The position numbers and the translations under genes were made by a program. A stretch of 64,000 bases of DNA from Candidatus Omnitrophota bacterium (lineage in GTDB: Bacteria; Omnitrophota; Gorgyraeia; Duberdicusellales; 4484-171), in the NCBI GenBank assembly GCA_021735655.1, contig JAIPGM010000001.1, forward strand, positions 64,001 to 128,000. The letters are read 5' to 3'. The notes under the pieces were generated by a model. It did no database searches. It was not told the DNA's origin and saw nothing but the letters and a program-made list of their open reading frames with translations. This document shows positions 30,001-51,000 of this stretch, piece after piece (position 1 is the first letter of the stretch; each line of letters starts with the position of its first letter).

Positions 30001-33000
30001 GATATGGCCAAATTAGTTGAAGCTACTTTAACTAAGAAGGCTATAGAGGGAGTTGACACTGGCTTACGTATCGTTACCAAGGGTAAGTATTCTTTACTTA
30101 TTCGTCTTGATAAGAATACCGGAGACCCGATTGAGGGAGCAATTGAGAAATCAGCAAAAGGCTTAAAAGCAGCCTCGCGACTTTTCGGTAAAACTGAATC
30201 ACACAAGACCTTTACCTTTGAGGAAAAACTTGACCCGCGAACTGGTCGAAGCAGCGATGTGGCAAGACTAATAACTGATAAGACTGACGCAAACTGGTTT
30301 GGGCTTTATATCGTTGAAGATGTAACTCTTAGGCAAATTATTGCTGCTTTTACTGAAAATGGCACACTTTCCGGAATAAACGGCGTTGATAGTGGGTTAA
30401 GAGCCTTACAAAAAGAAGTAAATGTGATTGTAGTTGACGCTCAAGGGCGTCGCACAACCCAAGAAGTTACTCGTAGCTTATTCTTACGCTTTGATTTAGA
30501 AACTAAAAAGTTAATTGAAGGAATTGTTCAAACTGAGGATCCTAATACTGATAGATTGCGTCCGGATAGCCTTGAAAAACGTCAAAAGGGCCAGAGAATT
30601 ACTGATGATGATTATTACTGGTTTGTCCGCGATGTCAGAGAGCCAAAACCGTTTGATTTTGAAGGTGCTATACCGTTAGATTCTGGACGCATCATAATTG
30701 TTAATCGCGAGGATCCTAATGTTCCTGGGCTTTGGTATGTGGTTGATGCTGAGGCTGGCGATATAGTCTCAGCTTTCCGTCAGAATGGATCATTAAGAAA
30801 TATTAGAGGCCGGGAAACTGGTTTCCGAGCTTATCAGACTGAAGTTACCTTACGAGATGGTGATGGAAAAGCTATTTTAGATGACCAGGGCCAGGAAGTT
30901 AAAGTAACTCATACTTTACTTTTCAGGTTTGAGTTAGATGATCAAGGAAGAATTATGAAAGATTCTTTGGCTGAAGGTGTACTCCAGGCTGAGACTACTG
31001 AAGCTAAATTGCGTCAAGGGAAAGATGGCAAAGATGAAACTAATGATTATTACTGGTTTATTAATATGTCTAAAAGCCTTATATCGTTTAAGGTTACCAG
31101 CTATGATCAAGGTAAGTCAGTATTAATGATTTCTCTGCCGGAAACAGAAGCTGACAAAGATGGTTGGCGTCCAGTTAGAAGGTTAGAGGTTGATAATGCC
31201 AATCAGATTAAAGATTTAGCTGAAGCCTTAAAGAGAGCAGTTACTAATAATGATTATAGCGAGCTGGGTGAGAAAACTGACACACGGATTAAGATCGTTG
31301 AAGTGGGTAAAGACCGTCGTTACATTATAATGGATAGTAATGGAGAATATTCAATAGAGGTTCAGTCAAAAACCGAAAATGATGAAGAATATGTCTTTAG
31401 CGCTAAGGCCTTGGAATATGGTTATATTGATAAAGAGGGTAAATATTGGTTGTACCGCGGAAATTTAAAAACAGTTACAACCGAAGATGGCAATAATAAA
31501 CTGCTATCAATTCAGGTAGATGAGAAACTCAATCCAGTTATTGATCAGACCACCAAAAAACCTTTTACCCAAACCGTAACTGTAGTCGCGGCCAATAGCC
31601 AGGCAGTAGTTATCATATTTGGCGACAATGAGCTTAATGTTTTAGCTCGCAAAAATGGGGAGAGGATCGGTTACGGTCTTAAAGATAAGGAAGATGGGAG
31701 ATTGTATATCTTTACTGGTTATACTCGTAACGATGACGGAAGCTACTCTTTAAATAAATCGAGTGTTAAGTTACAAGATATTGTTACGATAACTGTTGGT
31801 TTTAAGCTTGTTTCTACGGCGATTGATGAAGAAATGAAACCGCTTATTGATCTAGACACCAAGACACCATACACTCAAATTGCTCCGATTATTGCTGCCA
31901 ATGATGATTGGGTAGTAATTTTAGTTAAAGATAATAAGCTTAATGTTTTAAATCGAGATGACGGGAAAACGATCGGTTATGGCCAGAAAAATCCTAAAGA
32001 TGGAAAACTGTATTTATATATGATTTATGAGATAAAAGACGATGGTAAATATTATTTGAAGAAATCACCGGTTGATTTAAAGGATACAAAAGTCGTAACT
32101 ATCGGCTATGAGCTTATTTCTACTGAGATTGATTCAGATATTAATATAGTAATTGATCAAGCTACTAAGAAACCGAGCACCCAATTTGCTCCGATTGTTG
32201 CTGCTAATGATAAAGAAGTAGCAATCCTGGTTAACGGTGATGAACTAGTCGTTTTAGACCGAAAGAAAGGTAAAGAAACTGCCTACGGCTATGTTAAAGA
32301 TAAAAAATTCTACCTTTATGCATCAATTGATGTGCTTAAGGCAATCGAAGCCGGTCGATTTTTAGAGACCAAACAAGTTGATCAGAACCTTAAACCGGTT
32401 AAAGATCCGGCCACCGGAGAAGAGATAGTTGAAAAAGTACCAGTAGTTGCTGCAGATAAAACAATTGCCGTTATCTTAATTGAGAAAGAAGCCCCGGGCA
32501 TTGAGAATTCACACACACTTAATGCTTTAAGCAAGGCTACTGGTAGAAAAGCACGCTACGGCTATAAAGACTTAGCCGATGATAGTCTTTATTTATTTGA
32601 TTTAGTTGAAAAGATCAAGGTTGTTCAAGCTGGTCAAAGCTTAACTACTATTAAAATTGATGAAAAAGTCAATACGCTTAGTACTGAAACATTACCAGTA
32701 GTTGCCTCTAATGATGCGGAAGTCGTCATTCTGATCGACAAAGAAGCGCCGGGTTATCCAAATACTAAAACTCTTAATCTTATAAATAGAGAAACCGGTT
32801 TAGTCACTCGCTACGGCTATAAAGAGTTAGATGATAATAGTCTTTGGTTGTTTGATTCAATTGAAGCACTTAAAGCTGTCCAGGCCGATCAAAGCTTAAC
32901 TACCACTAAGATTGACAAAAAGATAGGCACGCTTGAAACTAAAGAAGTACCAGTAGTTGCTGCTAATGATAAGGTGGCGGTAATCTTAATTGATCGACCA

Positions 33001-36000
33001 GCTCCTGACTATGAAAATTCAAAAACTCTTAATGTTATAAGCAAGGATAATGGTAGAAAAGTACGCTACGGTTATAAAGATTTGAGTGATGATAGCCTTT
33101 ATCTATTTGATTTGATTGAAACATTCCAAGCTCTTCGAGGACCAGGAACTTTAACTACTACCAAGATTGATAAAAAGGTAGGCACACTTGATACTGAAAC
33201 AATAACTGTAGTTGCTTCTAATGGTTCAGAGGTAGTAATTAATCCAATTGGCGATAAGCTTGTTTCATTAGACAAATCTTCAGGCCGAAAAATCTATTGG
33301 GGTCATCAAAATAGATTTGGAATGTTTTTATTCTCAATGCAAGATTTAACTTTAGTTAACGTTGGCGATCCTTTAACTGGAAGAAAGATTGATCAAAATG
33401 TAAATAGCACACCGGTAAGTGCAAAAGTAGTGGCTACTGACCATTCTAACCGAATAGTTATTTTAGTAAACGGAAATGAGCTTAATACCTTAGATGCTCT
33501 CGGTGAGGTTAGAAGTGATGGTTATGGAGAGATGGATAAAAACGGCGATTTATTTTTATATGGCACAGAGTTATTGAATGCAAGGCCAGGCCAGATTATC
33601 CCAATCTATCCGATTGATCCAGATACTGTTGAGGCCGATAAAGCTAGAGGGGCCAAGGTAATACTTAAGATTAGAGGGGTAGTTGGGGTGGATGGTGTTA
33701 CTACCAAAGCCGTTTGGTTTGAAGTTTATGAGGCTAAGAATTATGATGCTACTACCAAAACATTTACCGGCCAACCAGAATCAAGTGAAATCCATTTAAT
33801 TGAAGCTGGCTCTAAGCCGAAAAAACTATATCTAAAAGACGATAAAATAACCCTAGAAGACCTTTGGTCAGTAGATCGGGCTGATTTTGGCAATCGCCAT
33901 ATTGCTACTGTGGCTGTTGATAAAGATAATTTTGGTGAAGTTGCCAAGGCGATTTTAACTGGCAAAATTGATACCTTAGAAAAATCAGGCGTAACTATTA
34001 TGGTCCGTGAAAGAAGCGATAGCGCTATCTGGTTTGACGTATTTAATGAAACCGGAAAGCGCCTTAGCAGCGAAATCCATATAAATGGCGACAGTCAAAC
34101 TTATATTGTTACCGGTAAAGACTCAAGCGCATTAATGTTGCTTGATGCAGAGGAAAATGCCGACAAAGATGGTTTTCGTAAAGTTTTTAAAATTAACTTA
34201 AGCTCTCCTGAGTCGTTAGAAAAAGTTGCTAAGGCTTTACGTGATCCGGAGAGTAAAGCTTTACTCGGAGAGGTAACTGGTACAATTGGAAAGGTATTTC
34301 ATGACAATGAGCATATAATTTTGTTTGCTTTTGACAGCGAAGGAAAGCTATCTCGAGGTTTACTCGAAGAGGTCGGTCCTACGGCAACTGATCAGCCGCT
34401 ACCGTTTAGAGTAAGAGATGGAACCATCAGAGTTCTTTGGGGAGAGGATGCTTCACAAACTGTAATCGTTGATGGATCGGAAATGCATTATTTAAAAGAA
34501 CGAGCAGTTGACGCTAAGGCTTTTGAGGCAAAGATAAGAGAAGCCACCACCTTTAAAGAAGTAAAAGATTTTCTTGATAATACTCCCGATACTGGTTTAG
34601 TCGCTTTAATCGTCAGCCAAGATATTATTTTTAAGGGAACCCCGGCAGTATTGAACCGGATATATATTCCCGGGTTATTACCTTTATACGAAGTAATTTC
34701 CAATACCGAAACTTCTAAAGTTTCTGAGTTTGAAGGTAAAGTTGAGGCTCGTTTTTATCCCTACACTCAGGAAAGAAAACTATTAGATCCTAGCCGAAAA
34801 GACCTTTTAACTGTTTCAGGGATGATGACCGTTGACGAAGGTCAAACCTTTAAAGATTTGCCAGTTGGATTACAGCAGACTCTTACTGATAAATATGGAC
34901 CAATTGCTCCGGATGCAGCGATAGTCCATCGTCACTTCTATAAGCAAGACGGTAATAAATACGATGAAGTACGTCAGCCCGGCGGTAGGGCTGATTCTTG
35001 GTTGCAAGGCTATGTTATCGAAGTTGACCATGCTATCGTTGTTGGTGGAAAAGAGTTACGCCAGGTAAATGGTAAGGATCTTAAATATACCATTGAGGTT
35101 GATAGAAAAGGTAATTTTGAAATCGCCCGCGTACATATTGATCATGTTGAATTGGCAACTATTGTTAAGGATCCAGAAAGCGGTAATATAGCTGCTATTT
35201 TTAAACCGGAAACCGGTCTTGTCCCCGATGAGGCCATACTTAGGATTGCTCAATATATTGACATAAATGGTATTGATTCATTTAATGTATCGGATAGTGA
35301 AAAGCAGAAAATAATTGTTGTTGCTAACGATATTTTAGAAAGAGATCTAAGGGCAGTGCCGATTACCGATGGCGAAAGAGAGCTAGTATCTCAGTTGATT
35401 TCGCGAATAAGTTTTCAGGCTGATTTTGTGGCTAAAAAATACTATAAGCTTGGTCAATTGCATAAAATTGTACTTGCGGAAAAACCACGAACAATTAGCG
35501 ATATCATTGGTTCTGTTGGTAATGATCCGATAGCCCGCGCTAAGATTGATAATAGACTTAAGGTGATTAGCCAAGGTTTAGGCCGACAGATGCCACGCGG
35601 CGGAGTAGCAGCGTTGACTATTACCCCTAGTTTGGTTTTACAGCTCAATGGGAATATTATGCGTGAGTATCGTTTTAAAGAAGATCGTTTAGCCAGGCTA
35701 ATTGCTTTTGAACAAGGTCAGGAATTGGCAGTTAATGTAGCGTTTAATAACCGAGGTGATCCAGTTCAAACCTTTAAGCTTTCAAAAAGCGAGCATTCAG
35801 ACCGTCAGGTTGGCTCACAAGTAATTGCTTGGGGCCAAACTCCGATGGCCGAGCGTGATGGTGAAATTTCTGATGAAGCTGATAGCTCTGAAGCTAAAGT
35901 TATCTTTGAACAGGATATTCCGGAGACTGCTCGGGCATTTCAGGAATTTGCCGCTAGCTTGAAAGAGAAACATGGGGTAACGGTTACCGGAGATCTCTGG

Positions 36001-39000
36001 GAAGCGATGGGTAAAATGGGAATTGTTCCGTCAACCATGATTACTCGCAGCGTACTTTATGAATATCCGCATAGTGGTAATATTGGTTCAACCAGCTTTA
36101 CTTCACCGCTTATTGAAAATAACGGTAGGGTTGAGATTGATCCGCAATATCGTGATTCAACTAAACAGATTGAGATGCTTTTTGTGCCTAATGATCCGCA
36201 AGGCCGGACATTGGCAACTAGATTTATTACCGAAGAAGGGTATAACTGGGTTATTAATATGTGGGGGCTTAAGGGCACCGATGCCCCGTTAGGAGTTTTG
36301 CCGGCCAGCATAACTATTAAATATGAAAATGGTAAATATAGCGGTTATGAGTTTAGCCGCTTCAAGCAATCAATTAGCGGCGAAGAATTAAATGCTGAAT
36401 CAGGTTTGAATTTATATAGTGGCCTGCAGGCTTACGAATATGAAGTATTTAATTCCGCTGTTGTACGTAATGTAATTTATTCTTCACAGGCTCAACTTTT
36501 AGGCGAGCGTTATGCTTTTGTAACTGGCAGGCCGGCTAAGGAGATTTTAGGAACCTCAACTTTAAACAAACCAGCGGTTGAGACTTTGTTTTTTAATCCC
36601 AACTCATCTTTACGCAGCCCGGTCAGATCAGTGTTAACAGTTGAACAAGAGCTAGCTAATAAAATTATAATTCCTGAGATGATCGATGATCAACATTGGA
36701 TTACTCCGCCTGGCGAAACAGTGTTGATTCAAACCGATAAAGGCATTAAGCCGGCGGTTAGGGTTGTGGTTAAAGATCAATATAGCGTACGCTACGAAAT
36801 AGAAGAAGGTAAACAGATTACCTATATTGTTGCTTTAGAGAGTGAAGGTTCAGCAATCCATACTAGATTTTGGCAAGAGTCAAAATTCATCGGTGACAAA
36901 GCAATAACTAAATATCGCGTAAACATAACTGATGAGTGGAAGGCTGATTTAAAAGCTAGTGCAAAATATATAGCTTTTATGCCGCTTGTGCTTGCGGCAA
37001 TTGTGCTTTTAGGTTTTATTTTATCTAAGGTCGGCTTTACTCTAAGAAGGGCCTTGCAGCTTTTAGGATTAATCTTTGATGTCGTCATTAGACCGATACT
37101 TTTAATTCCTCATCTTTATAAAATATGGAAATACGGAAGCAGCAGTACCGGAGATTTCTTTAGACGTTGGCTTTGGCCGTTTGGCTTAAAGGAGTCTAAT
37201 CCTTATGTTCATGCTTATAAGGTTTGGCTAGCTATTAGCGGAAAAACCGACGAGAAATTTACTGAAGGCATTAACAACCCCGACACTACTGATACCACTG
37301 AAGCCGAGATTACTAAATTGTTTGAGGAGATGTATGAGTTCTCAGTTAAACTTAAAGACGCCCCTGATTTTGTATTGTATCTTGTTTGGAGAAAGAGGAT
37401 GGGGGCAACTGAAGCTGAAATGGAGGAGCATAAAGACATCTGGTTTGATATTATTGTAGCCAACCAGAACTTTACAAAAAAAAGCAAGGGTACAGTTACC
37501 ATGCAGCATCGTTTTCATTATGACGATCTTGGTAATTTGTTCAGAACCCGTAAGTTCATTGATCGTTATGAACAATACAGAGAAAGTGGAAATCTTGACC
37601 CTTACCGAAAGTATGTTGATTTATTAAACAGCGATCTTGGCGCTATCAACTTATCGCGCCGTCAGCTACTTGAAATAATCCACTATAGTGGCAGTTTAAT
37701 TAATTCATTAAAGTATAGGGGTCGACATTCTGAGTTTGGATTACCTAGCGAAGCAATACTTTGGAAAACATTTCGCACCCTTGACGGTGGACCTTCAGGA
37801 TTATTTGGTTGGTTGGGCATTGCTCGAATACTTTTCAGACAAGGCTCGATATTTGCTATAAGTTTCTTTGTATTCTTAGCTAAATACTTACCGTTAGCAA
37901 AAATTGTAGCCTTCCTTTTTAGTAATCCTTGGATTATCTTAGCTTTAATTGCTATTGCCCTTAGCTTAGGAATATATACTTATTTAAGAAGAAATTACGA
38001 CAAGGTAAGTCATATGGGTCCGGCCTCAAGAGCATTAGCTTATCCTTTTGTTTTAGTTGCTTCAATTGTTAGAAGCGTGTTGAATGCCTATACTTTAAGC
38101 ATAGCTGCCATATTTGCCGGTGGAGTATTAATGAATGATGCGGCAGCTTTCAGTGGTGTAACTGGGTTAGCTTCTTTTTCTGAGGCAGCTTTAGGTAGTT
38201 TAAAAGCAGTTTCCTTAAGTGATCCTTATGTATTAAGCTTTATATTGATGCTAGTTGCTTTGTTTGGGATATTTGGCTTTTTGGATAATATGATTTCAGT
38301 TAAATATAACCCAACCAAGAAAGAGTTCGGCTATGCACCTTTGAGAGACGCAAAGTGGTTTAGTGAAATTGTTTTTTCTGGTGGAATGATGTTGCTTACC
38401 TTTGGTATAAAATTTGTCCTAAACTACTTTACTTTTAAATTTGTAATGGTTCCAACTAGCAGTTATTTGGCGAGCTCTTATGCTCCGCCAGCTTGGGCTT
38501 TTAAAACATATTTGGCTATAATGGCTATTGTAATTGTTATTGTAATTACTGTAAAACTTGTTGCTTATATTAGAAAGCTTAATGCAGTTAGAAAGTCAGA
38601 TACGGGTAAAGTTATGGCAACAGTATGGAGTGATATCAAATCTTTAAAACTTGTTGCTTATGTTAGAAAGCTTAATGCAGTTAGAAAGTCGGATACGGGT
38701 TCAGTTATGGCAACAGTATGGAGTGATATCAGATCTTTAGGAAGAGGCGACATTGGCGATTGGATAGGATTTGCCTTTAAGTGGTTTAGTTTAATTGGCT
38801 TGCCTTTGTTGCTTTATTTCTATGGGCAAGTATTTTTAGTAATTGTCCTTTGGCTTCCTTTTGCTGCTTTTTATATACTGGATACTTTCTTTGTTTTCTA
38901 TATTTTAGAGGGTATAGCCGGATACTTGCGTGGCAGCTACCTTGGTTTAAACCGAATAAGGAATTGGCCGCAATTAGTGGCTAATTTTCCTCATTTAAAA

Positions 39001-42000
39001 CAGGCCATTAGGGCTAATTATGCTCATCGGGGAATTCGCAAGGCTGATGGGTCACGCCTAACTAAAGAAGAAAGAGACTCAATAGTTGAGGAGATTTGGA
39101 ATGGAATAATAGAGCATGTTTTTAAGGAGGATAGACTTTTCGAGGAAGAAAGGGATCGATATTCTTACACGGCTGATGGTGGTCCCAATCTCATAAAAGC
39201 ACCGGAAGAGGATGAGGCTTTCGATCGAATTATCTTTTTTGCAACTTCCATGTTCATGCATACACCGCGTATGCCCAAGACCTGGGCAGACTTACGTTCC
39301 CATGCTGTTGTTGATCCGGCTAATGATGAAGATGTCTTTTATAATTTTGAAGGGACAATTACTAGTTTAAATGAAGAAGCAAGGGTAGATCCTGACGATG
39401 ATTCTCTTCCCGGTGTACAGAAAACATTCTTGTGTTATGAGATTTATCTTTATTCTAACCAGTGGTTAAATTTTAAACGCCGAATGCAGGCCTCAGGAAA
39501 ATTCAGGAATACTGAAATTCAGGAGTTACAGAACATATACGATGCAGTTGTTAACGGAGACCTTACTTATAAATTAAAGTTAAAGGATGGAAGAAAGAGG
39601 CTAAGTAAAGCTTTGCAGGACGAAGTTCGTCTTTGGGCCTCTTATAGGTTCCAGCCGCTTATTCGAACTGTTCGGGGAATTGAATATCGTCGAGATGCTT
39701 TAAAGTTGATTGCTAATAGTGTTTATTTCAGGGGGCTTGGCTATACTGATGAGCAAATCAGAGAGGAAGTTAATAAGAAGTTTCGGTTTGTGCTTGGATA
39801 CCAAAGCTATGCTCGACAACAAGCGGATATGGTAAATCCAGAGAAGAAACTTTCAGAACGAATTGCAGCTAGATCTCGCGTAGAAGGCGTCAAAAAAATA
39901 ATGGAACTTTTCCCTGATATATTCGTTGCTAACTTAACTAAAGACGGAATATCAATTTGCATGCAAGGCGGCGAAGAAATAGGCAGCAAAAATGAGAAGG
40001 ATTTCTTTTGGTTAGGTCCTGAAGTTACTCAAGGTAAACCTGAACATCAAAAAGTTCTTTCAATCTGGGTTGATCACGACGGCGGTAATTATGATCATGT
40101 TGATACAGTGGATATGAACCAGGATGATTACTTTGAAGAAGCTTTAAAGCATCCGTTAGTCTTACAGGAGCATAGCCCTGATGTTGCTATTGTTGGTATT
40201 CCTGAGCATATTTTTACTGCTAGCTTTGGTAATGAGGGGAAACTGCTTGCCTTCTCTGATAGCACCTTTGCGAACATGGTTCAGAGGGTAATTGCTATGG
40301 GCGGTACACGTATGCATTATGGTCACCCGGATAGTTTCCGTAAACGATTTGCTAAACGTATGGGCTGGACAGCTTCTTCAAGCAAATTGAACGAAGATAT
40401 CTTTGCTGGATATCGGGCAATACGCTACGGTAAACGAATTAAGTTTATTGAATATCGCCGAGTCGGTAAGGCCCGTGAGGTTAAATTCGCGACTTCAGTA
40501 ATTTTATTTCAGAAATTCGGACGTGGTTCTGGTGAACAAGCTCATGATTTTATGTTATATGAACTTTATGAATGTCAGAACTTTGGTTTCACCAAAGGAA
40601 TGTTTTTCTTGATCAGCTCAATTGGTTTTTATATCAGGAAGCCGGCTGTTGTCTTAGCTGTCCAGGGTTACATCTTTACCTTAATCTTTATGGGTTTAAG
40701 TGGTTTTGTTTCTTTTCCTTTAGAAGCTTTTCTTGGAGTCTTGGGTGTTTTAGCTTCTCAGGGTATTGTGGCTACCGGTTGGTTTGAATTGATATTGCGC
40801 AAGGGCGTAATCCGAGGAACTTCTGATTTAATCGCGATGATGGCTACTGGAAATGTTCCTTTTTATATGGCTCATGTTTATACCAATGCTTTTGGGTTTT
40901 CTGAAGCTCAGGCCGGTATTGCTGGATACTTAGGAAGTGGTCGTGGACCGATGTTACATCATACTCCGATTTTCTATCCTAATTTTAAGTTAAGCTTATA
41001 TGGATTTTTAGAAGGAAAACAGCTTTCGAAAATGATGATTGTTAATATGGTATTTATTATAGCCGGTATAGTTATCTGGCAGAGTCCGCCGATTCTTTGG
41101 TCAGCCTTATTTATCTTGCTTCCTTTTGCGGCTTACTTTTATCCTAATATGTCTAACCCGGGAGCATTACCGATAGGCGTTACTGTCGGTAGATGGCTTG
41201 AGATATATAAATCTGATCTTTCTTTATGGCGCAAAACCATAGCTTCTGATAATCCTCTTTGGGAAGGTAAGAAATTAGACGTAGTGCTTCACGGAGCAAT
41301 ATTATTTCCTGTATTATTAATAGTCGGTGGTTTTATAGCTCTCTTTATTAAGTTACCGGTTACCGTAGGCCGTTGGTTAAATTCTCAATTTTCTGACCGA
41401 GGCCATGTAATCTCGACCTGGGCTATTAATTTGATTGGTGCGGTGTTTGGTGTGGTTTACTTAGCCAATATGTTGGTTGATAAATTACCTCAATTGGGCA
41501 ACATCATTGAAGCTTCACCGATGGCTGCGGCAATAGTTGCGGCTATAGTTATTGCTCGAGTCCTTCTTTACATTGGAAGTTACTTTTATAATTTGATCGC
41601 TGCCCGTTCTCATCAGGGAGTAAGTGAGGCAGTAGCGGCTTTAACTTTAGCTGGAATTATTCTTGCTGGGTTGAAGTGGGGTTTAGCGCTTAAGGCTTTA
41701 GTAGTTGGCTGGTTTAGCTGGTTACCAGCTTTGTTAGCTAGTCCGATTGGCCCTTGGGTTGCTGCAGTCTTATTGGTCCTTGCAGTCGCAGCAATTGTAA
41801 TTATTGCTTTACCGAGACGTATGCAAACTCATCCTACAGTACCGGCTTGGTTTGTTATTATGGGTGGTTTAGGTTTGCTACTAACAACATTAGGGGTACC
41901 AATAGTGATAAATACCCTTACTATATTTGCTGCGATTGCAGTGGGTTCGTTTGTTAATGGAATAGTTGCTCAGGATTTACCAAGAAAGGCTAAAGAGAAG

Positions 42001-45000
42001 AGATTAAAACGTAACCAAGCATTACCTTACCCGGCAACTATGCCAATAACTAATAAATTAGATCGTTCGCTTACTGAAAGTGAAAAAGAAAAAGTTATTT
42101 TAGCTTTTGGCGGAAGCGATGCCTTGGCAACTAATGGTATAGAGTTGAATGATCAAAATCTAGTAATGAGTCCGGCTCTTTCAGCTCCAGCTGAAGTAAG
42201 AGGCGGAGTTCTATATATAAATCCTAATACTTTAAGAGGTCCACCAGAACAGCTAAGAGTGATATTTGAAGGCCATGAATTAGCTCATTTTTTAGGAATG
42301 GATGAAATTCAAGCCAGACAATATACCATCGACTATCTTTTAGCGAATGGTTTACTTGAGAGCCACATTGCTTTCTTAGAGAATAATTCTATTGGTCTTG
42401 TAGCTGATCAGGAATGGTTAGAGGCTTTGAGCCAGAAATCAGTTTCTTTGGATAACGGAATTGAGCTTAAAGTTTATAAGTATAGGCCAGGAGTAAAAGT
42501 TGCTGTTGCTCAGATAGATCCGTCAATTTTACAGCCGCATATTTTAGTTTCCAGTGAGTTGGAAGGTAAGTTGCATTCGGTTGATCGTCGCTCTAACTAT
42601 GTATTGTATTATGATCATGAGACTGGCGAGCGTCTAGATAGCTTTCCTGAATCACGCCTAAAAGTATCTACGGTTACTAGTTTAATTGAAAGATTCCAGG
42701 ATCTTCATCCAGATTCACGAATAGAGATTATTACTGGTAACGAAAACCTTTTCTATAACAAGCCGATAGTTACAGTTATAGCCAATAAAGCTTACCATGC
42801 TGTCGGCGTTGACATAGAGAATCGTAATTATCCTATGCTTGTAATTTGGGCTGACGGTGCAGTAACTATCGAGGAAAGTGTTAGTTTCGAGTTTACTGAT
42901 TTTGATCAAAATGAAGTCAGAGTGTTGATTAATGGGAAAGAAGAAGATATACGCTATGCTACGGTTATCCAGTTAGTTTTAAATAAACAAGGTGTTGTTA
43001 ATCCGGGATCCCAGTTATATTTCTTTGATGATATCAAACATTTATTTGCGATGCCACGATTCAGCTCAGATGACTTTCCAGGAACTTTACCCAAGGGTTT
43101 GATGAGCGGAGCCATATTTTTTATGGCTGATCAACTTCTATCTGAAAATGCCCAGCGTGTAATCGACTATTACGATTCACAAAATCCAAAAACTGTTCAG
43201 GATTTTAATTTAACAAGCACCGTTTTTAGCAGAAGTGCCGATGGCCAAGATCGGGTAAGATTAATCAATATACCAGCAGAGTTATTAGAAGCTAGGTTGT
43301 TTGAAGCCGGATACTTACCTGATGACTATTCTATTGATCAAAGAAGAGGTGTAATTACTATAAAGCTTAGAGAAAATGTTTATCCTTTTCATATTATTGG
43401 AGTTACAAGTGATGGATTGGTGAAGGAGATAGTAGTTAATGGTAAATCTGGTAAGGTTGGTGTCACTGTAAGAGAAGCTGCCACTATTGCTCAAAAAGAG
43501 GGATTAATTAAGGCCGGAATAGTGGATCAAGGGATGACCGTTCGTTTAGATGTGGGTGATTTACGTTTTGGTAATGTTATAGTGGATAAACCTGGGCCTG
43601 AGAGGGCTAGTTCTTTAATCGTTTATACCCATATGCCTCTTGATAATGGTAAACAAAATAGACAATCGCCTCCCAGCGATGATAGATTAGGAGGAAGGGC
43701 TAGCCATAACGTGGCTGTGGCTGGTCCTGCTTCTAAGCCTTTGGATAATGGTCGACCAGGAAAGACCGAATGGAGCGATTTAATGAATCGCGTTGATCGG
43801 GTAAATGGCCTTAGGCAAGATGCACGAATAGCCGTAGTGCTTTATATAGTAGGAGTTGATCAAGAAATCGATGCCGGAACAAGAACAGCTCCTTTAACTG
43901 CCGGAGAACTACTGGTTAATGTTAATGGCGTAGGCCAGATAACTTCACGAAGAATTTTCCGAATAGTCGGTGAATTAAATCTTGCCGGAGTTACTTTAAC
44001 TCCGCTTGATAATGGAAGAGATAATCAATCCTCCCTCAGCGTTTCAGGGACCGACTTAAATCAATTATCGGGTGGATCAAGAACGCGGGCCTTAGAAGGC
44101 TTAAGTAGCTTCTACATAAAAACTAATTCAGTACCGGAGGGTATTCAAGAATTGTTTGATAGTCCTTCCGGATTATTAATAACCGTATCTGATTCTGATG
44201 GTGTGGTTGGCTATGCTTGGATTGATGTCCCAGCTGATGAGGATCAAGTACCAGCCAGGGTAGTCGTTAGTTTAAGTGACCGTCAATCTTTGGCAGTAGC
44301 TGAAAAGCTTAACCATGCAGTAATAAAAACCTTTATCGAAAGAAGTATCCTAAGTGGTAGTAAATTCCTCTTATCAACTCCTAGTGGAGAAAACCTTAAC
44401 TTCGCTCAATGGTTAAATCAACAATCACAATTCATCGCTGGTTTAGCCCAAGCCGGAATAGTTGTTGCTGACATTCAAACTAGTTTTTTAATTGAAGAAG
44501 GTAAACTAATGACTGTGACAGTAGCATCAAGACATCAAGATAAAACCAGAGCAAATAGAAAACCTTTAAATAACGGAAAACAAAATAGACAATCGCCTCC
44601 CAGCGATATAGATGGATCCCTGTTAAGGGATCAGGTAAGAGGAAGGGCTAGTCATGACGTGGCCGTGACTGGTCCTGCTTCTAAACCTTTGGATAATGGT
44701 AAGGATGTCGAAAGAGCAGAACATGTATTAGAACAAATAGGGACTGCTTTGGAGGGAGTTAAGGAATTAGTAAGTGCTCATTCTATTATTGTTGGCTTAT
44801 TAGTTGCCACGGTGCTAGTAGCGGTTAGCATTGGTTTATTCTTAGCCATCTGGCGCATATTCTTTTCAGTAAGTTGGTGGTTGCGACGATTGGAGAAGGT
44901 AGAGGCTAAGATGCAGATTCATGAGTTTTTTGTTCGTTTAGATCGGGATAAAGCTATAAAGCTTGTACAAAATATTTTAGCCAACTTCAGGGCAGAGCTT

Positions 45001-48000
45001 AAAAAAATTGATAAAAAAATAAATAAAGTGCACAATCGTAAAGAGCGTCTTCCCGAACTGGTTTCCGAGTCTACTTTTGTAGAGGATTTTGCTTATCAGT
45101 CTGATGTAAATGGGGTTACAATTATCGAAGGCCACATGGAACAAATATTAGTTCCTAATCCTAAACGTGAAGATTTAGATTCCAGGATAAAGGGATTAAG
45201 GGAAAGGGAAGAACTCATAACTAAACAAATATCTAAATTGGAAGGTATGTTGACTTCTTGGGAAGAAGCAGCATTAAGGTTAAGATTAGACCAATTGCAA
45301 AAAGAGTTAACCTCAACCCTAACTACTACTCTTGTATATGACTTAGATAGTGAATTAGTTTGGTGTGGAGACTTCGACTATAAATATGGTCAAGAAATTG
45401 GTGATTGGGTTCACTCAAAAATGAAAAGGGTAGTGAATCCAAGGTATTTGCAGCTTGAACAGGAGATAGCAGAAGTAGCTACTAGGTTGGATCGATTATT
45501 AGATGATAGTGCAAGCAGGGAACAAAGAAGACCCACCCCTCTCGACAACGGCACAGAACCTAGCGTGTCTTCTTATCCTCATCCCAGAGCAATACTTTGG
45601 GATTTAGATGGCACCTTAGTCAATACCATGCCACAGGTGTTAGAGAGTTTCGGAAAGGTAATATATTGGATCAGGACGGCCAGTTCGATTGAACCACAAC
45701 AGTCACAATCCCAAATAGCTCAAGATTATTTCGAGCATAAGCCTTGGAAGGCCTTAACTGATCATTTAGTTGATGTTATAGCTCAAGCTCAACAGGATCA
45801 TGTTTCTCAGGCTCAGCTAGCTCAGGTCGCACAAGAGCTAGGCCAACGCTATCAAGCTCCAGCAATGAATCAGGCTGATGAATTAGTTTTTAGTTTTGCT
45901 AAGATTTACGAGGCGGTATTATTAGATGAGGTTGAACATAATCCGCCAGCCTTATTTCCAGGAGCTTTTGCATTAATACATAACGCTAATCAACAGGGAG
46001 TATTACTTTATATTGCTACGGGTACACCGCAAAGGGTAGCTGAAGCTATAGCTATAAACTTACGCCTTGATAATTATTTTAGACGTATATATGGTGTACC
46101 AGTTGATAGTCCCTATCCTTTTGTTAATGGAAAGGCAGATATTTTAGTACAAATAGAGACTGAGCTAGAAATTTCCAGCAGTCAGATTGCTATTGTCGGT
46201 GATTCGGCAGGTGATGTTGCAGCAGCAAGACATCCGTCTCTACCGGAAGGATCTAAGTTTGTTTCAGTCGGTATTGCCAGCAGCCCTGAGAAACGTCAAG
46301 AGTTAAAAGAGGCTGGGGCTGATTTCATTGTTCCGGATTTAGAGTTTACTGGAGGCCAGATAGTTAAGCTATGGTTTCCGGCGGTTCCAGTTGTTCCAAA
46401 TTTACCGCAACGTAACGATAGTTTACCTTTTCAGTTTGTTTTTATGACGGTAACTAAATCAAGCCAAGCTCAAGATTTACAGGTTGAGCCTATTGAATTA
46501 AGGCCATTTTCAAGTCGGATCATCGGGTCGGTACTTGAAGGTGATTATACCGGAGCTCCGGCAGAACTTTCAGCTCGTCAAGTAGACTTTAACCGGCCGT
46601 TAGCCGATCTTTTTCCGATCGTAAGAGCCGCTATCGAGACTAATGATGCTGCTGAATTCTTTTATCTAGTAGAAGGTATCGTAGCTTCTGAAGTTCTTAA
46701 TCCGGCTGAAAAGCGCGAAGCATTCCTTACAATTTCTGCCTGGAGTAAATTTATGCCTAATACAATCAAGGGCGAAGGTTACTGTTCTTATTCTTTTGAA
46801 TGGTTTGCTAACGCTGCCTTAGAGCATCAGCATAGCAATCAAGGTGATCAAGAGTTAAGAATCGGATCTTTGGGCTCAGGCGATGGTTTAGCGATTTATC
46901 AGAATAGAACCTTAATGAGAATACAAGGAGTAACTCCTAAAATTACCCAGTTTGAAATTGATCCGAGAAGTATAGATCGATCTAAGGTTCTTAACCCCGA
47001 TGATGATTATGTTCAATGCGATCTTTCAAAGCTAGATCCTGAGGTACGTAAAAGATATCAGGGCCAATTTGATGTAATTTACCTTAATAATGTTTTACAT
47101 GAACTTTTTGCCTTCTGCGGTGAAGAAGGCGTCAGAGAAACTTTACGATTGGCTAATGAGTTTTTAAAGCCAAACGGAAGAATAGTCTTTCGAGATGGAT
47201 TGTATCCGCACAACGGAAACACCTATGTTCGGGTTGCGGTATCGGAACAGTATGAAAAAGCCTTCCTTTATTTTATCGCTAATTTTAACTGGCCAATACC
47301 TCTTTTTCTGGGATTTGATGAGGATGAGGTAGTGTTAAGATTCGGAGACTTAGCTAAAATTTTAACCAAAATTAAATTCATACAACAACGAGCCTGGGAT
47401 GATCGTTATCCGGTAGAAGACGAGATGCGGCAAGTTTATCCTTACGCTAGTGTTTATGATTATATGAAATATTTTCATGAAGCTGGATTCGTTAGCGAGT
47501 TTATCAGATTGGGTAATGAGCAGGAAAGCTTACAGCTGTGGAAAGAAGTTTTCCCCTTTAGACAGATGCTTTCACTTGAACAAATTGAAGATGCTGGAAT
47601 CTCACCATTGCAGGAGGCGAGCATTCCGGAAGCGAATTTTACTTCTAAGCCTTTGGATAATGGCAAAGATGTCTCAAGGGCAGAACATATTTTAGGACAA
47701 ATGGATAGATTTCCTCATTCAGCCAGCACTCAAAGCATAGTGTTACATTTTAACCCAGAAGCATTCGCTCAAAGTTTTAGCCCTACAAGCTTTGCTGAGA
47801 GAGTAGCTGAAGTAATTACTTTTAATCCAAAAACTACAGCCGGAAGAGAGTTAGGCCAAACTCTTGATAGAATAGTAAATCAATTCCAGAGTCAAAAATC
47901 AGTATTCGTTCCTTTAATTATTAAATCAGGCCTAGATAGCCCAGAATCATTTGGTTATAAGTCTATAGCAGATTTCTTAAGAAGTAATTTTAATCACAAT

Positions 48001-51000
48001 ACTCCGGCTTTACAGTTTATCGTTATAACTGATAGCGTCAGTGACTATCAAGGATTTCTAGATTCTGGTAGTCAATTCGTTTGGGAATTAGTAGCAGTTA
48101 ATAAATTCGATTTCACGCAGAACACCCCCCTCGACAACGGCTATCAAAACCCGGCTGATTTAGCTGCCCGAGCTCGCGAGCTTGGTTTGGAAAATCTAGC
48201 TTTAAATATTGAACAAAATGTAGTTACTACCCAAAAAGACTTAACCGTAGTAGCTGATATGTTTGCTATCGGCCAAAGCCATATCTTTGTTGGTTGGGAT
48301 CAACCAGGGATACATGATAATCAGAAGCTTCAGGTGTTGGGTCAGATCCGTCGTCGTAGTAAGCAATACCCAGGAAACCTAAAAGCCTTGGCTGATAACT
48401 CAAGAAAACTACTTGAAGGTTATTATGCTGGTAAAGGAAGATTCGATGACTACGAAGTAGGCACTCCAGAGACAACTGAAATATCAAGTCTAGTAACTAA
48501 AGAAGGAGAATTAATCCCACAAGCGGTAGCTGCTTATCTAGCTCTAGAAGCTGAAGGTTTAAGCTTAGCTAATCAGGTAGTTTGGGCTGAACCTGCCGGT
48601 GGTAGAGGTGAACGTCTCAGCAAAGAACAACCAATACCTTATCGAGGCATTAAACCAGCTCTTCTTATTGCTTTAATCAGTCAAAACTCTCAATTTGCCA
48701 GCTTCCAGACTCGTCAGATTATGGGTTGGCAGAGATTAGCCAATCAATCTCAAGGAGGGCAATTAGACCTAATTAATTCAATCATGAGTTCAGAAGATAA
48801 CCATGAAGATCTACGTCGTCTTTATGAACAACATAATTACTTTGGCGCTAAACCCGATTCAGTTAACCTACATCCACAACCATTAGTCTTTGCTGTAAAC
48901 ACCTACGAAGGTCATTTTGCGGTTGAAGACGATGCTTATCCTTATCGTTTAGTTGAAAAAGCTCATGGCCATGGTGATATCCATATGGTTTTTCATCAAC
49001 AAGAGGTTGCTAAACATGCCCTCGATCGGGGAAGAAAATATATCGTCTTCTATCAAGATACTAACTTACCGATATTCAGAGCTCTTCTACCTACTTTAGC
49101 CATAACTGAAAGAGAAGGTTATGTTTTAAGCTTTATTGCTTCACCGCGTCACCCTGGTTCAGCAGTCGGAGCTTTAGCTAAATTAACGCATAAGCAAACT
49201 GGCGATGAAACCGTAATGAACGTTGAATATATGCTTTTAGGTGATATGGATGTAGCCGCCAAAGGTAGTGAATTTACTCCATTCCCGGGTAACTTAAACG
49301 GTCTAGTCTTAGCTCTTGAGCCTTATCATCAAGCTCTTGAAGAAGCTCATGGCTTAGTACCAGAATTAATCAATCCGAAAGACCCTGAGCGTGATCTAGA
49401 AGCTTTAAAAGTAATCACCTTGCCTGATGGCTCAACAGCTCATAAACTTAAATCAGAAGCTCGAGCTGAAAATAATATGCAGGATATTGCTGAGATTATG
49501 GGTGATAAAGGTCCGGTAAGAGTAATCCAATTTGAAGATGGAACCTGGATCTTCTCAGCTGCCAAAAATAGCCAAGAATTAGGTAGGCAAGCTGTAGCTA
49601 AAGGTATTCCTTCTGAGACCATGGCTTCAGCTGAAGCTGACTTCTATCGTAATAATCGAATTGCTCTTGCAGTTGCCGGTTTACAAGTAAATGTTAATGG
49701 CCACCAAACTCAATCTCAAGGCGTACCCTACCAGGACGGAGCCAAGATCTATCTTGATCCGTTTATGTATCCGACTCTGGCCTCAGTAGTCGAAGCCTTC
49801 CGTAACGGTGGTTCACTCAGCGAAGAATCAACTTTGGTCGTTGAAGGTGAGGGACGAGTAAACTTTAACCACCTAGAACTAAACGGAACTTTAACTATCC
49901 ATGCTGGTGAAGGAGTAACTATACTCGTAGACGGGTCTTTTGAGACTGTTGGTACCTGGCGCTTTAGAAATTTAAGCCTTGAGGAACTAAGTAACCCAGC
50001 TATCGGAGATAACGAACTGATCAGAGGTTATCAGTTAATCAGAGATGGTGGCTTAAGATACAATGTAACCGAACCAGGAAGTTATACCTTAACTCAAGAT
50101 GGTTTAACTAAGAATCAAAGTCCTTTGGATAATGGTAAACAAACTTTAGACAATCAACGGACGTTCAGATCTAATAGAGCATGTATAACACCGACAATTA
50201 TCATTGCGGTGGCAGTGGCTTTATCATTTTTAGTTGGAGTAGAAAGATTTTTTACTTACTTTGCAATAGGAATATCCGCCCTAGCTGTGATTTTTAGTCT
50301 TTACTATTCAATTATTGAATTAATTTCTTTTATGAACAATCAGTCTTTTGATAGTAGAAGGCAAGGAGATAGGCAGGATGACCCTAGACGTGAAGAGCTC
50401 AAACGAAGATTAGAACAATCAGATACTGAGAATGATCGAAAAAGACCGTTAGATAACGGTAGAGAGAAGACCATCGTAGATTTATCCGTAAATTTAAAAC
50501 CCGGCCGTTATCATTACCCGGCCTACGCACCAACTGCTGATCAAGACGAACGTGAACCAGACGATGAAGAACGTGGAAGAATTATCGCACTTTTTGGCGG
50601 AAGAAATGTATTTGATCAAGCAGATTTGATTGTAAGAATTGCTCCGAGATTAGAATGGGTTGCTGAGGTTGACATTCTAAGAGAACAACCCAAGAAGTAT
50701 TTATTAATTAATCCTAATGTTATTCGGGGGCCACCGCAGTATGATTCACAACTTAAAATAATTTTTGAGCAGCATGAAGCATATCATTTAGATGGTGATG
50801 ATGAGAATGTCGCTACAAATAAAACTATTGAGTATTTAGTTTCAACTCCAACCGCAGTTAACCAACCAAGATTATTAATTAGCCATCTTCGTTTCCTTGA
50901 AAATAATTCTTTAGGCATAAGGCCGAAGCGAACATGGCGCAATCGCCTCGTTCGACGCATTGATGTGCAAGATTTACCAAGCACAAGACAGAGAACCGAT

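Follow-up and report, generated by a model that had tools for sequence, protein, structure and literature searches.

The stretch of DNA analysed here, referred to as the window, comprises 64,000 nucleotides (nt) of the Candidatus Omnitrophota bacterium assembly GCA_021735655.1 (contig JAIPGM010000001.1, positions 64,001 to 128,000, forward strand). A single open reading frame (ORF) runs through it from end to end, and this giant bacterial ORF almost certainly harbours a homologue of the glycosyltransferase family GT48, to which the Fks1 and Fks2 enzymes of yeast and the callose synthases of plants belong. Frame +1 is devoid of stops over 21,333 codons, whereas each of the remaining five frames contains 952 to 2,749, and the probability of such a run is about 1e-659 from base composition alone. 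GC content is uniform (about 0.40) and GC skew is positive throughout. A frame without stops over 64 kb identifies the window as an internal piece of one giant gene, which has at least 21,333 codons, is open at both window ends and falls in the size class of at least 10,000 amino acids (aa) used for Omnitrophota giant proteins. The ORF contains 64 hydrophobic windows (Kyte-Doolittle, 19 residues) and carries thioredoxin, M54-like, GT48, HAD, methyltransferase, UDP-sugar pyrophosphorylase (USP), phosphoenolpyruvate (PEP)-utilising, HATPase_c, weakly matching NUDIX and phosphofructokinase (PFK) domains, without a single dominant repeat (Table 1). A previous reading of this DNA, made from the letters alone (hereafter the sequence-only reading), had placed the synthase segment inside one ORF lacking introns, and both statements hold.

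Pfam scans of the ORF, performed at E <= 1e-3 and then at E <= 0.05, recognise the Glucan_synthase family PF02364 at nt 39,202-40,695 with 191 bits (E = 4e-56; gathering score 37.2), the match covering profile positions 3-509 of 819. The GT2 profile Glyco_trans_2_3 scores 25.8 bits on the module, under its 27-bit cut-off. When all PDB sequences are searched with phmmer, yeast FKS1 and GSC2/FKS2 are the only matches (E = 1e-22). An AlphaFold2 model of nt 38,698-41,970 reaches pLDDT values of 80-94 over the glycosyltransferase (GT) domain (model residues ~80-500), and values below 50 in the membrane tail. Foldseek comparison of this model with the PDB returns Fks1/Fks2 structures as the top 13 matches (E 7e-19 to 1e-13), the next fold being that of BcsA (4hg6, E = 0.02). 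The family motifs are found in the order HYGHPD (nt 40,315-40,332), NEDIFAG (40,390-40,410), VGKARE (40,462-40,479) and GSGEQ (40,525-40,539). The sequence-only reading had aligned nt 40,180-40,600 with the catalytic region of beta-1,3-glucan synthases, noting a multi-transmembrane tail behind it; the motifs lie where it had placed them, the tail is hydrophobic as described, and the GT48 assignment passes the profile, sequence and fold comparisons.

The roles of individual residues of Saccharomyces cerevisiae Fks1 have been reviewed (PMC12715860): E1221 and D1222 of the ED motif are catalytic, the D-A/M-N motif (D1102/N1104) stands in for the DxD motif, and Y849, E851, K1082 and N1085 bind UDP-glucose (UDP-Glc). 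We mapped these residues onto the window, 28 bacterial loci described below, yeast and plants, with the yeast GSC2 segment serving as the numbering ruler. In the window, the DPANDE segment (39,313-39,330) retains E851 and has Asn in place of Y849, GKPEHQ (40,033-40,050) retains K1082 and has His in place of N1085, DMNQD (40,111-40,125) corresponds to D1102/N1104, and NEDIFAG carries E1221/D1222. The D-M-N form of the motif is that of plants and algae, the fungal form being D-A-N. The window and essentially all 28 bacterial loci retain K1082, D1102/N1104, E1221/D1222, the HYGHPD block, the GKxRE arginine and the G(E/Q)Q glutamine; the ED and D-x-N motifs are conserved in 26 to 28 of them, and departures at catalytic residues are confined to two outliers (E1221 replaced by Lys in L017, several changes in L028). 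With regard to the two substitutions, Asn at position 849 also occurs in the plant callose synthase P0007. His at position 1085 is found in the window and in loci L001 and L002, most other bacterial loci retain Asn, and His is absent from the aligned eukaryotes. The conservation of the catalytic residues at an overall identity of just 25-55% argues for a working active site, and the GT48 module is thus likely to be catalytically active.

The catalytic domain belongs to a larger module (nt ~37,200-41,950), composed of an FKS1_dom1-like region, a transmembrane (TM) bundle, the GT-A domain and a second TM bundle. The sequence-only reading had located the synthase at 39,900-41,990; a synthase does lie there, but the homologous module extends further upstream and is itself preceded by a conserved bacteria-specific region that we call block X. 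Along the polypeptide, hydropathy places a soluble block first, followed by two TM segments (aa 12,324-12,369) and a loop, then some 6-7 TM segments (aa 12,615-12,975), the GT domain of ~570 aa, and about ten or more TM segments (aa 13,549-13,982). In profile-profile comparisons with hhalign, the full upstream profile of the bacterial sequences gives a collinear alignment to the N-terminal portion of callose synthases (99.9% probability, E = 5e-36). After removal of the part already known to be homologous, window aa 12,400-12,627 match residues 229-420 of the callose synthase P0005 (94.4% probability, E = 9e-8), and HYDDLGNLF (37,516-37,542) aligns to the NYDDxNExFW motif of callose synthases. 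Pfam does not detect the FKS1_dom1 (PF14288) region of the window, and the eukaryotic FKS1_dom1 signature GEAANxRFxPE is absent from all bacterial sequences, being present solely in the eukaryote clade. Taken together, the hhalign matches and the TM pattern point to nt ~37,200-41,950 as the likely equivalent of a eukaryotic GT48 enzyme from FKS1_dom1 to the C-terminal TM bundle.

Within this module, the segment just before the GT domain aligns in phmmer with the TM5/6 region of FKS1 (GSC2 residues 698-720). A 93-nt in-frame tandem duplication (38,552-38,739, two copies, 94% matches in TRF) lies in the loop before this TM5/6-like segment; it has recently added 31 aa to a module that is conserved otherwise. 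In the second TM bundle, presumed from its alignment to form the glucan-translocation channel, GSGRGP (40,933-40,950) lines up with TGRG, a motif conserved in FKS and callose synthases. Block X contains the motifs PNDPQGR (36,187-36,207), INMWGL (36,253-36,270) and LLGERY (36,496-36,513). In about ten loci, tblastn finds it collinearly placed upstream of the GT core, and a hidden Markov model (HMM) built from its alignment finds it N-terminal to GT48 in about 28 bacterial proteins. No counterpart of block X was found in eukaryotes, in the PDB (by sequence or profile) or in Pfam. Its structure model is beta-rich with a long helix at its end (mean pLDDT 53), and gives no significant fold match.

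Table 1. Features of the giant ORF in the window (nt positions within the window).
Feature	Position (nt)	Strand	Evidence
Giant ORF, internal piece of multi-enzyme gene	1-64,000	+	Frame 1 without stops; both ends cut by the window
Thioredoxin	12,115-12,435	+	Pfam
M54/reprolysin-like zinc motif	22,357-22,506	+	Pfam
Block X, bacteria-specific, conserved	35,275-36,960 (core ~36,000-36,960)	+	Collinear tblastn, alignment, HMM
Two hydrophobic segments, predicted TM helices joining block X to the GT48 body	36,970-37,107	+	Kyte-Doolittle, 19-residue window, H 2.1-2.7
Divergent FKS1_dom1-like region, leading to the first of the synthase body's TM segments	37,198-37,881	+	hhalign profile-profile
First TM bundle, ~6-7 hydrophobic segments, the last being TM5/6-like ('LWLPFAAFYILDTFF')	37,843-38,925	+	Hydropathy, alignment
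GT48 catalytic (GT-A) domain	38,926-40,644	+	Pfam, PDB sequences, residue mapping, structure model
Second TM bundle, ~10+ hydrophobic segments	40,645-41,946	+	Hydropathy, alignment with FKS/callose synthase C-terminal TM regions
HExxH-motif domain, copy 1 (HELAH 42,274-42,288), directly after the synthase	42,007-42,438	+	Self-match
HAD-superfamily phosphatase	45,586-46,230	+	PF00702 E = 3e-18; PDB 3mc1
Methyltransferase	46,870-47,205	+	Pfam
USP-type UDP-sugar pyrophosphorylase, full-length	48,160-50,103 (aa 16,054-16,701)	+	phmmer vs PDB, motifs
HExxH-motif domain, copy 2 (HEAYH), directly after the USP domain	50,515-50,958	+	Self-match
PEP-utilising enzyme, PEP-binding domain (enzyme I/PPDK family), PEP-utilizers_C	53,020-53,772	+	PF02896 E = 1e-20; PTS enzyme I C-terminal domains E = 3e-12
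HATPase_c	58,567-58,917	+	Pfam
Possible PIG-L/LmbE-like deacetylase	59,971-60,492	+	PF02585 21.6 bits, under the 28.2-bit cut-off; VHPDD motif 59,971-59,985
Phosphofructokinase	60,982-61,977	+	PF00365 E = 3e-32, 112 bits; PDB PFKs E = 2.5e-11

A second enzyme that may bear on glucan synthesis is encoded 2,070 aa downstream of the GT48 module in the same ORF. This USP domain gives no match to Pfam UDPGP at E <= 0.05, and was recognised by phmmer comparison with PDB sequences. The window sequence alone matches MbUSP (9UML) with E = 6e-73 and the UDP-sugar pyrophosphorylase 3OGZ/3OH0 with 2e-30, over ~550 of ~600 residues; with a profile built together with L014, in which a stretch is 35% identical to the window block, the E-value falls to 1e-137. 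Its motifs include AGGRGERL (48,595-48,618), HGHGDIH (48,964-48,984) and QDTN (49,051-49,065), as well as GIK, NVEY and NPK. The UAP/USP-type pyrophosphorylase proposed in the sequence-only reading is thereby borne out. USP-type pyrophosphorylases take many sugar-1-phosphates, and the domain is presumed to supply the UDP-sugar donor in cis.

The association recurs among the bacterial relatives, since UDPGP or USP domains lie downstream of GT48 in the window, L014 (E = 2e-33), L021 (1.5e-12) and P0125, and in L003 in the ORF adjoining the GT48 ORF. Cytidylate-kinase domains are found a few hundred residues downstream of GT48 in L010 (~14,420-14,930, E = 1e-20) and L021 (~15,730-16,250, 3e-40), the latter adjoining UDPGP, which suggests that nucleotide recycling is encoded beside the synthase in these two loci. 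When the window was probed with the UDPGP and cytidylate-kinase domains of the relatives, nothing significant was found outside the USP block. In other respects, a hexokinase domain follows GT48 in P0003/L019.

Among the remaining domains, the PFK, the HAD phosphatase and the PPDK-like enzyme of the sequence-only reading, the last as a PEP-utilising domain of PPDK/enzyme I type, are all recovered by Pfam with low E-values (Table 1). The PIG-L/LmbE-like deacetylase is a weaker case: it displays the VHPDD motif and is 29% identical over 232 aa to a sequence of L025 located in a separate ORF ~6.6 kb downstream of the GT48 ORF, but its Pfam score stays below the cut-off. No GH5 or clan GH-A domain is found by Pfam in the ORF at E <= 0.05 (at E <= 1e-3 for nt 63,000-63,999), nor is there a GH5 match among PDB sequences at E <= 1e-3 in the parts scanned, which leave out nt 30,001-34,800; furthermore, the clan GH-A domain of the relative P0123 has no detectable homologue in the window. 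The GH5-like hydrolase claimed earlier is thus not substantiated, and of the 'toolkit' proposed with it, sugar activation and polymer synthesis stand, whereas remodelling within the window does not. Weak Pfam matches to NUDIX, NAGPA, ATP-grasp and FBPase_C occur at various positions, and PDB-sequence scans of the remaining ORF gave no further domains. Homologue searches returned no match for the PIG-L/PFK segment and a single match for the USP segment, so that no taxonomic signal came from either.

A domain with an HExxH motif is present twice, directly after the synthase and directly after the USP domain. In a chunked self-BLAST, the copies (aa 14,010-14,146 and aa 16,839-16,986, ~145 aa) are 36% identical with E = 3e-19, and such a domain lies downstream of GT48 in L014, L008/P0139 and P0154 as well. 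A possible role for it is that of a metallopeptidase processing the giant protein where its modules meet. The zinc motif HELGHLFGINHE, located further upstream (22,357-22,506), matches the C-terminal part of Peptidase_M54 (archaemetzincin) and, weakly, reprolysin models, and is another candidate self-processing protease.

Repeats are also present outside the module. Divergent tandem protein repeats extend over nt 29,900-33,600 (aa ~9,968-11,200), with a period of roughly 85-100 aa and copies 26-43% identical. TRF detects within this array a 255-nt unit repeated three times (32,467-33,223), and in short stretches the array also matches the beginning of locus L023. A low-complexity repeat rich in Ala, Glu and Lys (AEKAAEAKKVADAEKL..., 15,144-15,652, with periods of 36, 51, 87 and 123 nt) accounts for a weak 'Plasmodium_HRP' Pfam match and for the strong AT skew of nt 12,000-18,000. 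It also accounts for the sole long antisense ORF of the window (15,042-15,638, minus strand, 198 aa), which is probably not a gene.

The survey of prokaryotic genomes by a pattern scan, with one genome for each of 185,579 species, yielded 29 loci. One of them, L027, was initially a candidate for a stand-alone bacterial GT48 gene and was rejected as a mis-binned eukaryotic contig (CALOCH010000001.1, 'uncultured Gammaproteobacteria' metagenome-assembled genome (MAG) HOU_bin.0176). Positions 1-19,740 of this 294-kb contig carry a canonical GT48 scoring 627 bits with the Pfam model, an FKS1_dom1 split over two ORFs, a MAP65/ASE1 gene and a split GST; the contig represents contamination in a GTDB species-representative genome. 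The remaining 28 loci, from 28 different assemblies, carry the GT48 module. According to their NCBI labels, 18 of the assemblies are Omnitrophota/Omnitrophica, including the chromosome-level OY759724.1 (L020), eight are Planctomycetales/Planctomycetia, one is from Elusimicrobia and one from an "uncultured bacterium". Most of the GT48 ORFs exceed the sequence that was fetched: 22 of the 28 overrun it at both ends, their stop-free codons numbering up to 7,653, and five overrun its 5' end only. In L004 (Omnitrophota single-amplified genome AM-311-J02), a single in-frame TAG (7,610-7,612) lies between a 2,519-aa ORF and the 2,462-aa GT48 ORF, and the alignment of the conserved block X spans it; this TAG may be a sequencing mistake of the single-cell assembly, may mark a gene that is truly split, or may be read through.

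Among GTDB representative genomes, the nearest GT48 relatives are Omnitrophota MAGs at 47-55% identity. In database searches, the top three homologues are incomplete proteins from Candidatus Omnitrophota MAGs, followed by plant callose synthases at ~27% identity, and further segments of the window ORF have matches in the giant ORFs of the bacterial relatives as well. A HMMER search of 1.84 billion cluster representatives returned 800 matches at E <= 1e-3, of which 141 at E <= 1e-30. The best of them are long proteins, up to 7,886 aa, with the GT48 match deep inside, and the bacterial GT48 sequences form dozens of 50%-identity clusters. No GT48 relative was found among 2.9 million viral contigs. 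The sequence-only reading regarded GT48 as essentially eukaryotic; this view does not survive the existence of a bacterial clade present in 28 species-level genomes.

The relatives P0121 and P0123 are encoded by complete genes. P0121, the closest (48% identity), is a 5,775-aa protein whose gene has a dense bacterial neighbourhood on a scaffold of 399 kb. Directly downstream of it (L030, ENA ERZ23486252 scaffold_8, 27,380-28,148) are a bAvd/23S_rRNA_IVP-like gene, of a family that usually goes with diversity-generating retroelements, and a gene for a 120-aa PilZ-domain protein. A free-standing c-di-GMP receptor beside a processive glucan synthase recalls the regulation of BcsA. P0123 (L033, GCA_053991835.1 JBMYEL010000135.1, 277-8,389) is only 2,315 aa long and consists of a signal/TM segment, a clan GH-A barrel, block X and GT48. 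For the barrel, Pfam gives a near-tie between GH72 (34.9 bits) and the GH2 TIM barrel (34.6 bits). A GH-A domain of this type is found in five other GT48-bearing ORFs, including L001, which belongs to the clade of the window, and L011. A divergently oriented NTP_transferase gene adjoins that of P0123.

The relation to eukaryotic GT48 was addressed, as the sequence-only reading had proposed, with a phylogeny: a bootstrapped neighbour-joining (NJ) tree of 119 sequences over 360 core columns, unrooted in effect. In this tree, all eukaryotes (plants, yeast, Cyanophora, Calcidiscus, Nannochloropsis and Gymnodinium) fall in one clade, around which the bacterial sequences form several deep lineages with no eukaryotic sequence among them. 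Distances average 1.39 among the bacterial sequences, 1.02 among the sampled eukaryotes and 1.63 between these groups. Bootstrap support is 87% for the window clade (window, L001, L002, L003 and P0121) and 55% for the monophyly of eukaryotes. Domains of giant proteins are reported to be highly divergent and fast-evolving; given this, the 55% support and a tree that is effectively unrooted, the conclusion is limited to the bacterial modules not nesting in plants or fungi. In addition, the GT48 module has a synonymous codon choice typical of the ORF, 14 of 34 same-size segments deviating as much or more, which argues against a recent import; across bacteria, GT48 modules occur in genomes with GC contents of 0.30 to 0.54. 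An ancient transfer may have taken place in either direction. The 'HGT-built prokaryotic megagene' of the sequence-only reading is therefore half retained: the megagene is prokaryotic, but its codon choice and the absence of nesting in any eukaryotic group do not speak for horizontal transfer. A bolder proposal, to which we attach limited credence, is that bacterial GT48 represents an ancient and more diverse radiation from or alongside which the FKS and callose synthases arose, in an Omnitrophota/PVC-like lineage, and that Omnitrophota export beta-1,3-glucan by means of a self-supplying megaprotein.

From these elements, a mechanism can be proposed. Starting from a sugar-1-phosphate and UTP, the USP domain would make UDP-glucose or a related UDP-sugar, and the GT domain would take up UDP-glucose at the cytoplasmic face. 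The module would then polymerise a beta-glucan processively, a beta-1,3 linkage being the likeliest by analogy with characterised GT48 enzymes, while the two TM bundles would form an export channel as in Fks1, through which the chain would be threaded across the cytoplasmic membrane without the involvement of a Rho1-type regulator. The polymer would be destined for the cell envelope or the extracellular matrix of these ultra-small, host-associated bacteria. As a whole, the interpretation of the ORF as a giant Omnitrophota 'multi-enzyme' gene with a nearly complete GT48, acting as a processive UDP-Glc-dependent beta-glucan synthase and exporter supplied in cis, appears to us reasonably probable; that the product is specifically beta-1,3-glucan made from UDP-Glc is about an even call.

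Several observations weigh against this interpretation. Product, linkage and donor are attributed by family analogy alone, and the window clade differs from yeast at two positions that contact UDP-Glc (849 and 1085). The TM regions are modelled with pLDDT values below 50, so that the channel is deduced from collinearity with known synthases, and hydropathy gives no reliable membrane side for the GT domain relative to the USP domain. Ten of the 28 MAGs bear non-Omnitrophota NCBI labels, which are unconfirmed, and the giant protein may be made intact or cleaved. The main rival reading is an active processive synthase making another polymer, with a different linkage or from another UDP-sugar, an alternative that we consider unlikely. 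The substitutions at the donor-contacting positions, the breadth of sugar-1-phosphates taken by the USP family, which makes a donor supply in cis not specific for glucose, and the 25-30% identity of the bacterial modules to characterised enzymes all favour it; moreover, one paper words the product of a diatom GT48 with a different linkage, so that a uniform linkage across the family is not a safe assumption. Yet the literature treats every characterised GT48 as a beta-1,3-glucan synthase, the ED, D-M-N (identical to that of plants), HYGHPD and GEQ blocks are all conserved, and Asn at position 849 is shared with a plant callose synthase. At the other extreme, the GT48 segment might be a relic without catalytic activity, or serve a giant scaffold protein purely as a structural anchor in the membrane. 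The fast evolution reported for giant-protein domains, a confident structure model for only part of the module and the recent 93-nt duplication within it are compatible with this idea, but the catalytic residues are kept across 28 species-level genomes at 25-55% identity, as under purifying selection, apart from the outliers L017 and L028, and a donor-making enzyme recurs near the module, which renders a relic quite improbable.

The remaining alternatives concern the origin of the sequence rather than its function. A recent horizontal transfer of GT48 from a plant, an alga or a fungus would fit a family otherwise known from eukaryotes, whose best non-bacterial matches to the window are plant callose synthases (~27% identity) and whose plant/algal D-M-N motif, not the fungal D-A-N, the window shares. 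However, the bacterial lineages are deep, with a mean pairwise distance exceeding that of eukaryotes and no intermixing, none of the bacterial modules contains the eukaryote-specific FKS1_dom1 motif, and the codon choice of the module is that of its ORF, in a family distributed over host genomes of widely differing GC content; such a transfer is thus very improbable. We give next to no credence to an intron-less giant gene of eukaryotic or viral origin, as raised in the sequence-only reading, giant viruses being the viral candidates here, or to a chimeric assembly. GT48 and USP are both typical eukaryotic enzymes, but the closest relatives, for the module as for other ORF segments, come from Omnitrophota-type MAGs, one of them chromosome-level, the viral contigs contain no relatives, and the one true eukaryotic contig encountered, L027, looks quite different with its high GT48 score, split FKS1_dom1, MAP65/ASE1 gene and split GST. 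As for a chimera, its frame would not stay open over 21,333 codons at a uniform composition.

Echinocandin and triterpenoid antifungals are directed at GT48, a family to which the callose synthases of plants also belong. It is treated as eukaryotic in the papers that could be searched, and a deep bacterial clade reopens the question of the origin of this enzyme. The bacterial versions are probably independent of Rho1 and include compact genes of ~2,300 aa such as that of P0123, much more tractable for biochemistry than the giant versions, in a family otherwise hard to handle. The glucan synthase interpretation also predicts that Omnitrophota, which are abundant, ultra-small and thought to be predatory or parasitic, make and export beta-glucan; if true, this alters the view of their envelope and of their attachment to hosts. 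Finally, the window offers a concrete case of a giant gene in which a polymer synthase is fused in one polypeptide with the enzyme making its activated substrate.

Both the GT48 family and the giant genes of Omnitrophota are already known. By contrast, a large bacterial GT48 branch and its place in giant genes were not found described in the open-access papers and preprints searched: none of them joins Omnitrophota with a glucan synthase, or Omnitrophica with any GT48 term, and those on GT48 evolution discuss eukaryotes only. Public precomputed annotations nevertheless tag some Omnitrophota fragments with PF02364, and the domain is visible to standard pipelines. Glycolytic and PPDK domains have been reported in the 'Archaeovorins' (West-Roberts et al. 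2023, bioRxiv 10.1101/2023.11.21.568195), and a 'multi-enzyme metabolic cluster' class of Omnitrophota giant proteins has been described more recently (bioRxiv 10.64898/2026.06.07.730766), a class into which the domain content of the window fits. The glycosyltransferases reported in both papers are of the GT5/starch-synthase and GT1 types, and their texts mention no glucan synthase, GT48 or callose synthase. Like other Omnitrophota giant proteins, the window ORF far exceeds 10,000 aa, carries many TM segments and internal repeats, and combines domains of the HATPase_c, methyltransferase, HAD, NUDIX-like and PEP-utilising kinds with others of sugar metabolism, as a mosaic between unannotatable sequence. 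The SecA-DEAD, C39 and dockerin domains of these proteins are not seen in the window, which is itself only part of the gene.

Compared with Fks1/Fks2 and the callose synthases, the module of the window has its parts in the same order and shares the ED, D-x-N, K1082, HYGHPD, GKxR(E/D), GEQ and (T/S)GRG blocks, at an identity of ~25-30%. However, the eukaryotic enzymes are free-standing proteins of ~1,800 aa, whereas the bacterial module is embedded in an ORF exceeding 21,000 codons; it lacks a counterpart to the first ~230 residues at the eukaryotic N-terminus, and its FKS1_dom1 region, which carries a signature in eukaryotes, is too divergent for Pfam. Unlike eukaryotic GT48, it is preceded by a bacteria-specific beta-rich block and TM helices; in addition, N1085 of Fks1 is replaced by His, and regulation by the Rho1 GTPase is not expected. 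With regard to the GT2 enzymes CrdS and BcsA, the logic would be the same, namely a membrane-integrated, processive and UDP-glucose-dependent synthesis of beta-glucan coupled to export, and the 'cellulose-synthase-like' fold of BcsA (4hg6) is shared at a distance (Foldseek E = 0.02, vs 7e-19 for Fks1). The GT2 profile nevertheless stays sub-threshold, and D-M-N and GEQ blocks occupy the place of the DxD and QxxRW motifs of GT2. No PilZ domain is detected in the window module, while a separate small PilZ gene adjoins the gene of its closest relative. As for the pyrophosphorylase, the solved USPs (3OGZ/3OH0, 8TG2 and MbUSP 9UML) are enzymes of ~600 aa that align over nearly their full length with the window domain and have AGG(L/R)GERL...GIK, HGHGD(I/V)H, QDTN, NVEY and NPK in common with it, whereas the window USP, missed by Pfam UDPGP, is a domain of a giant polypeptide.

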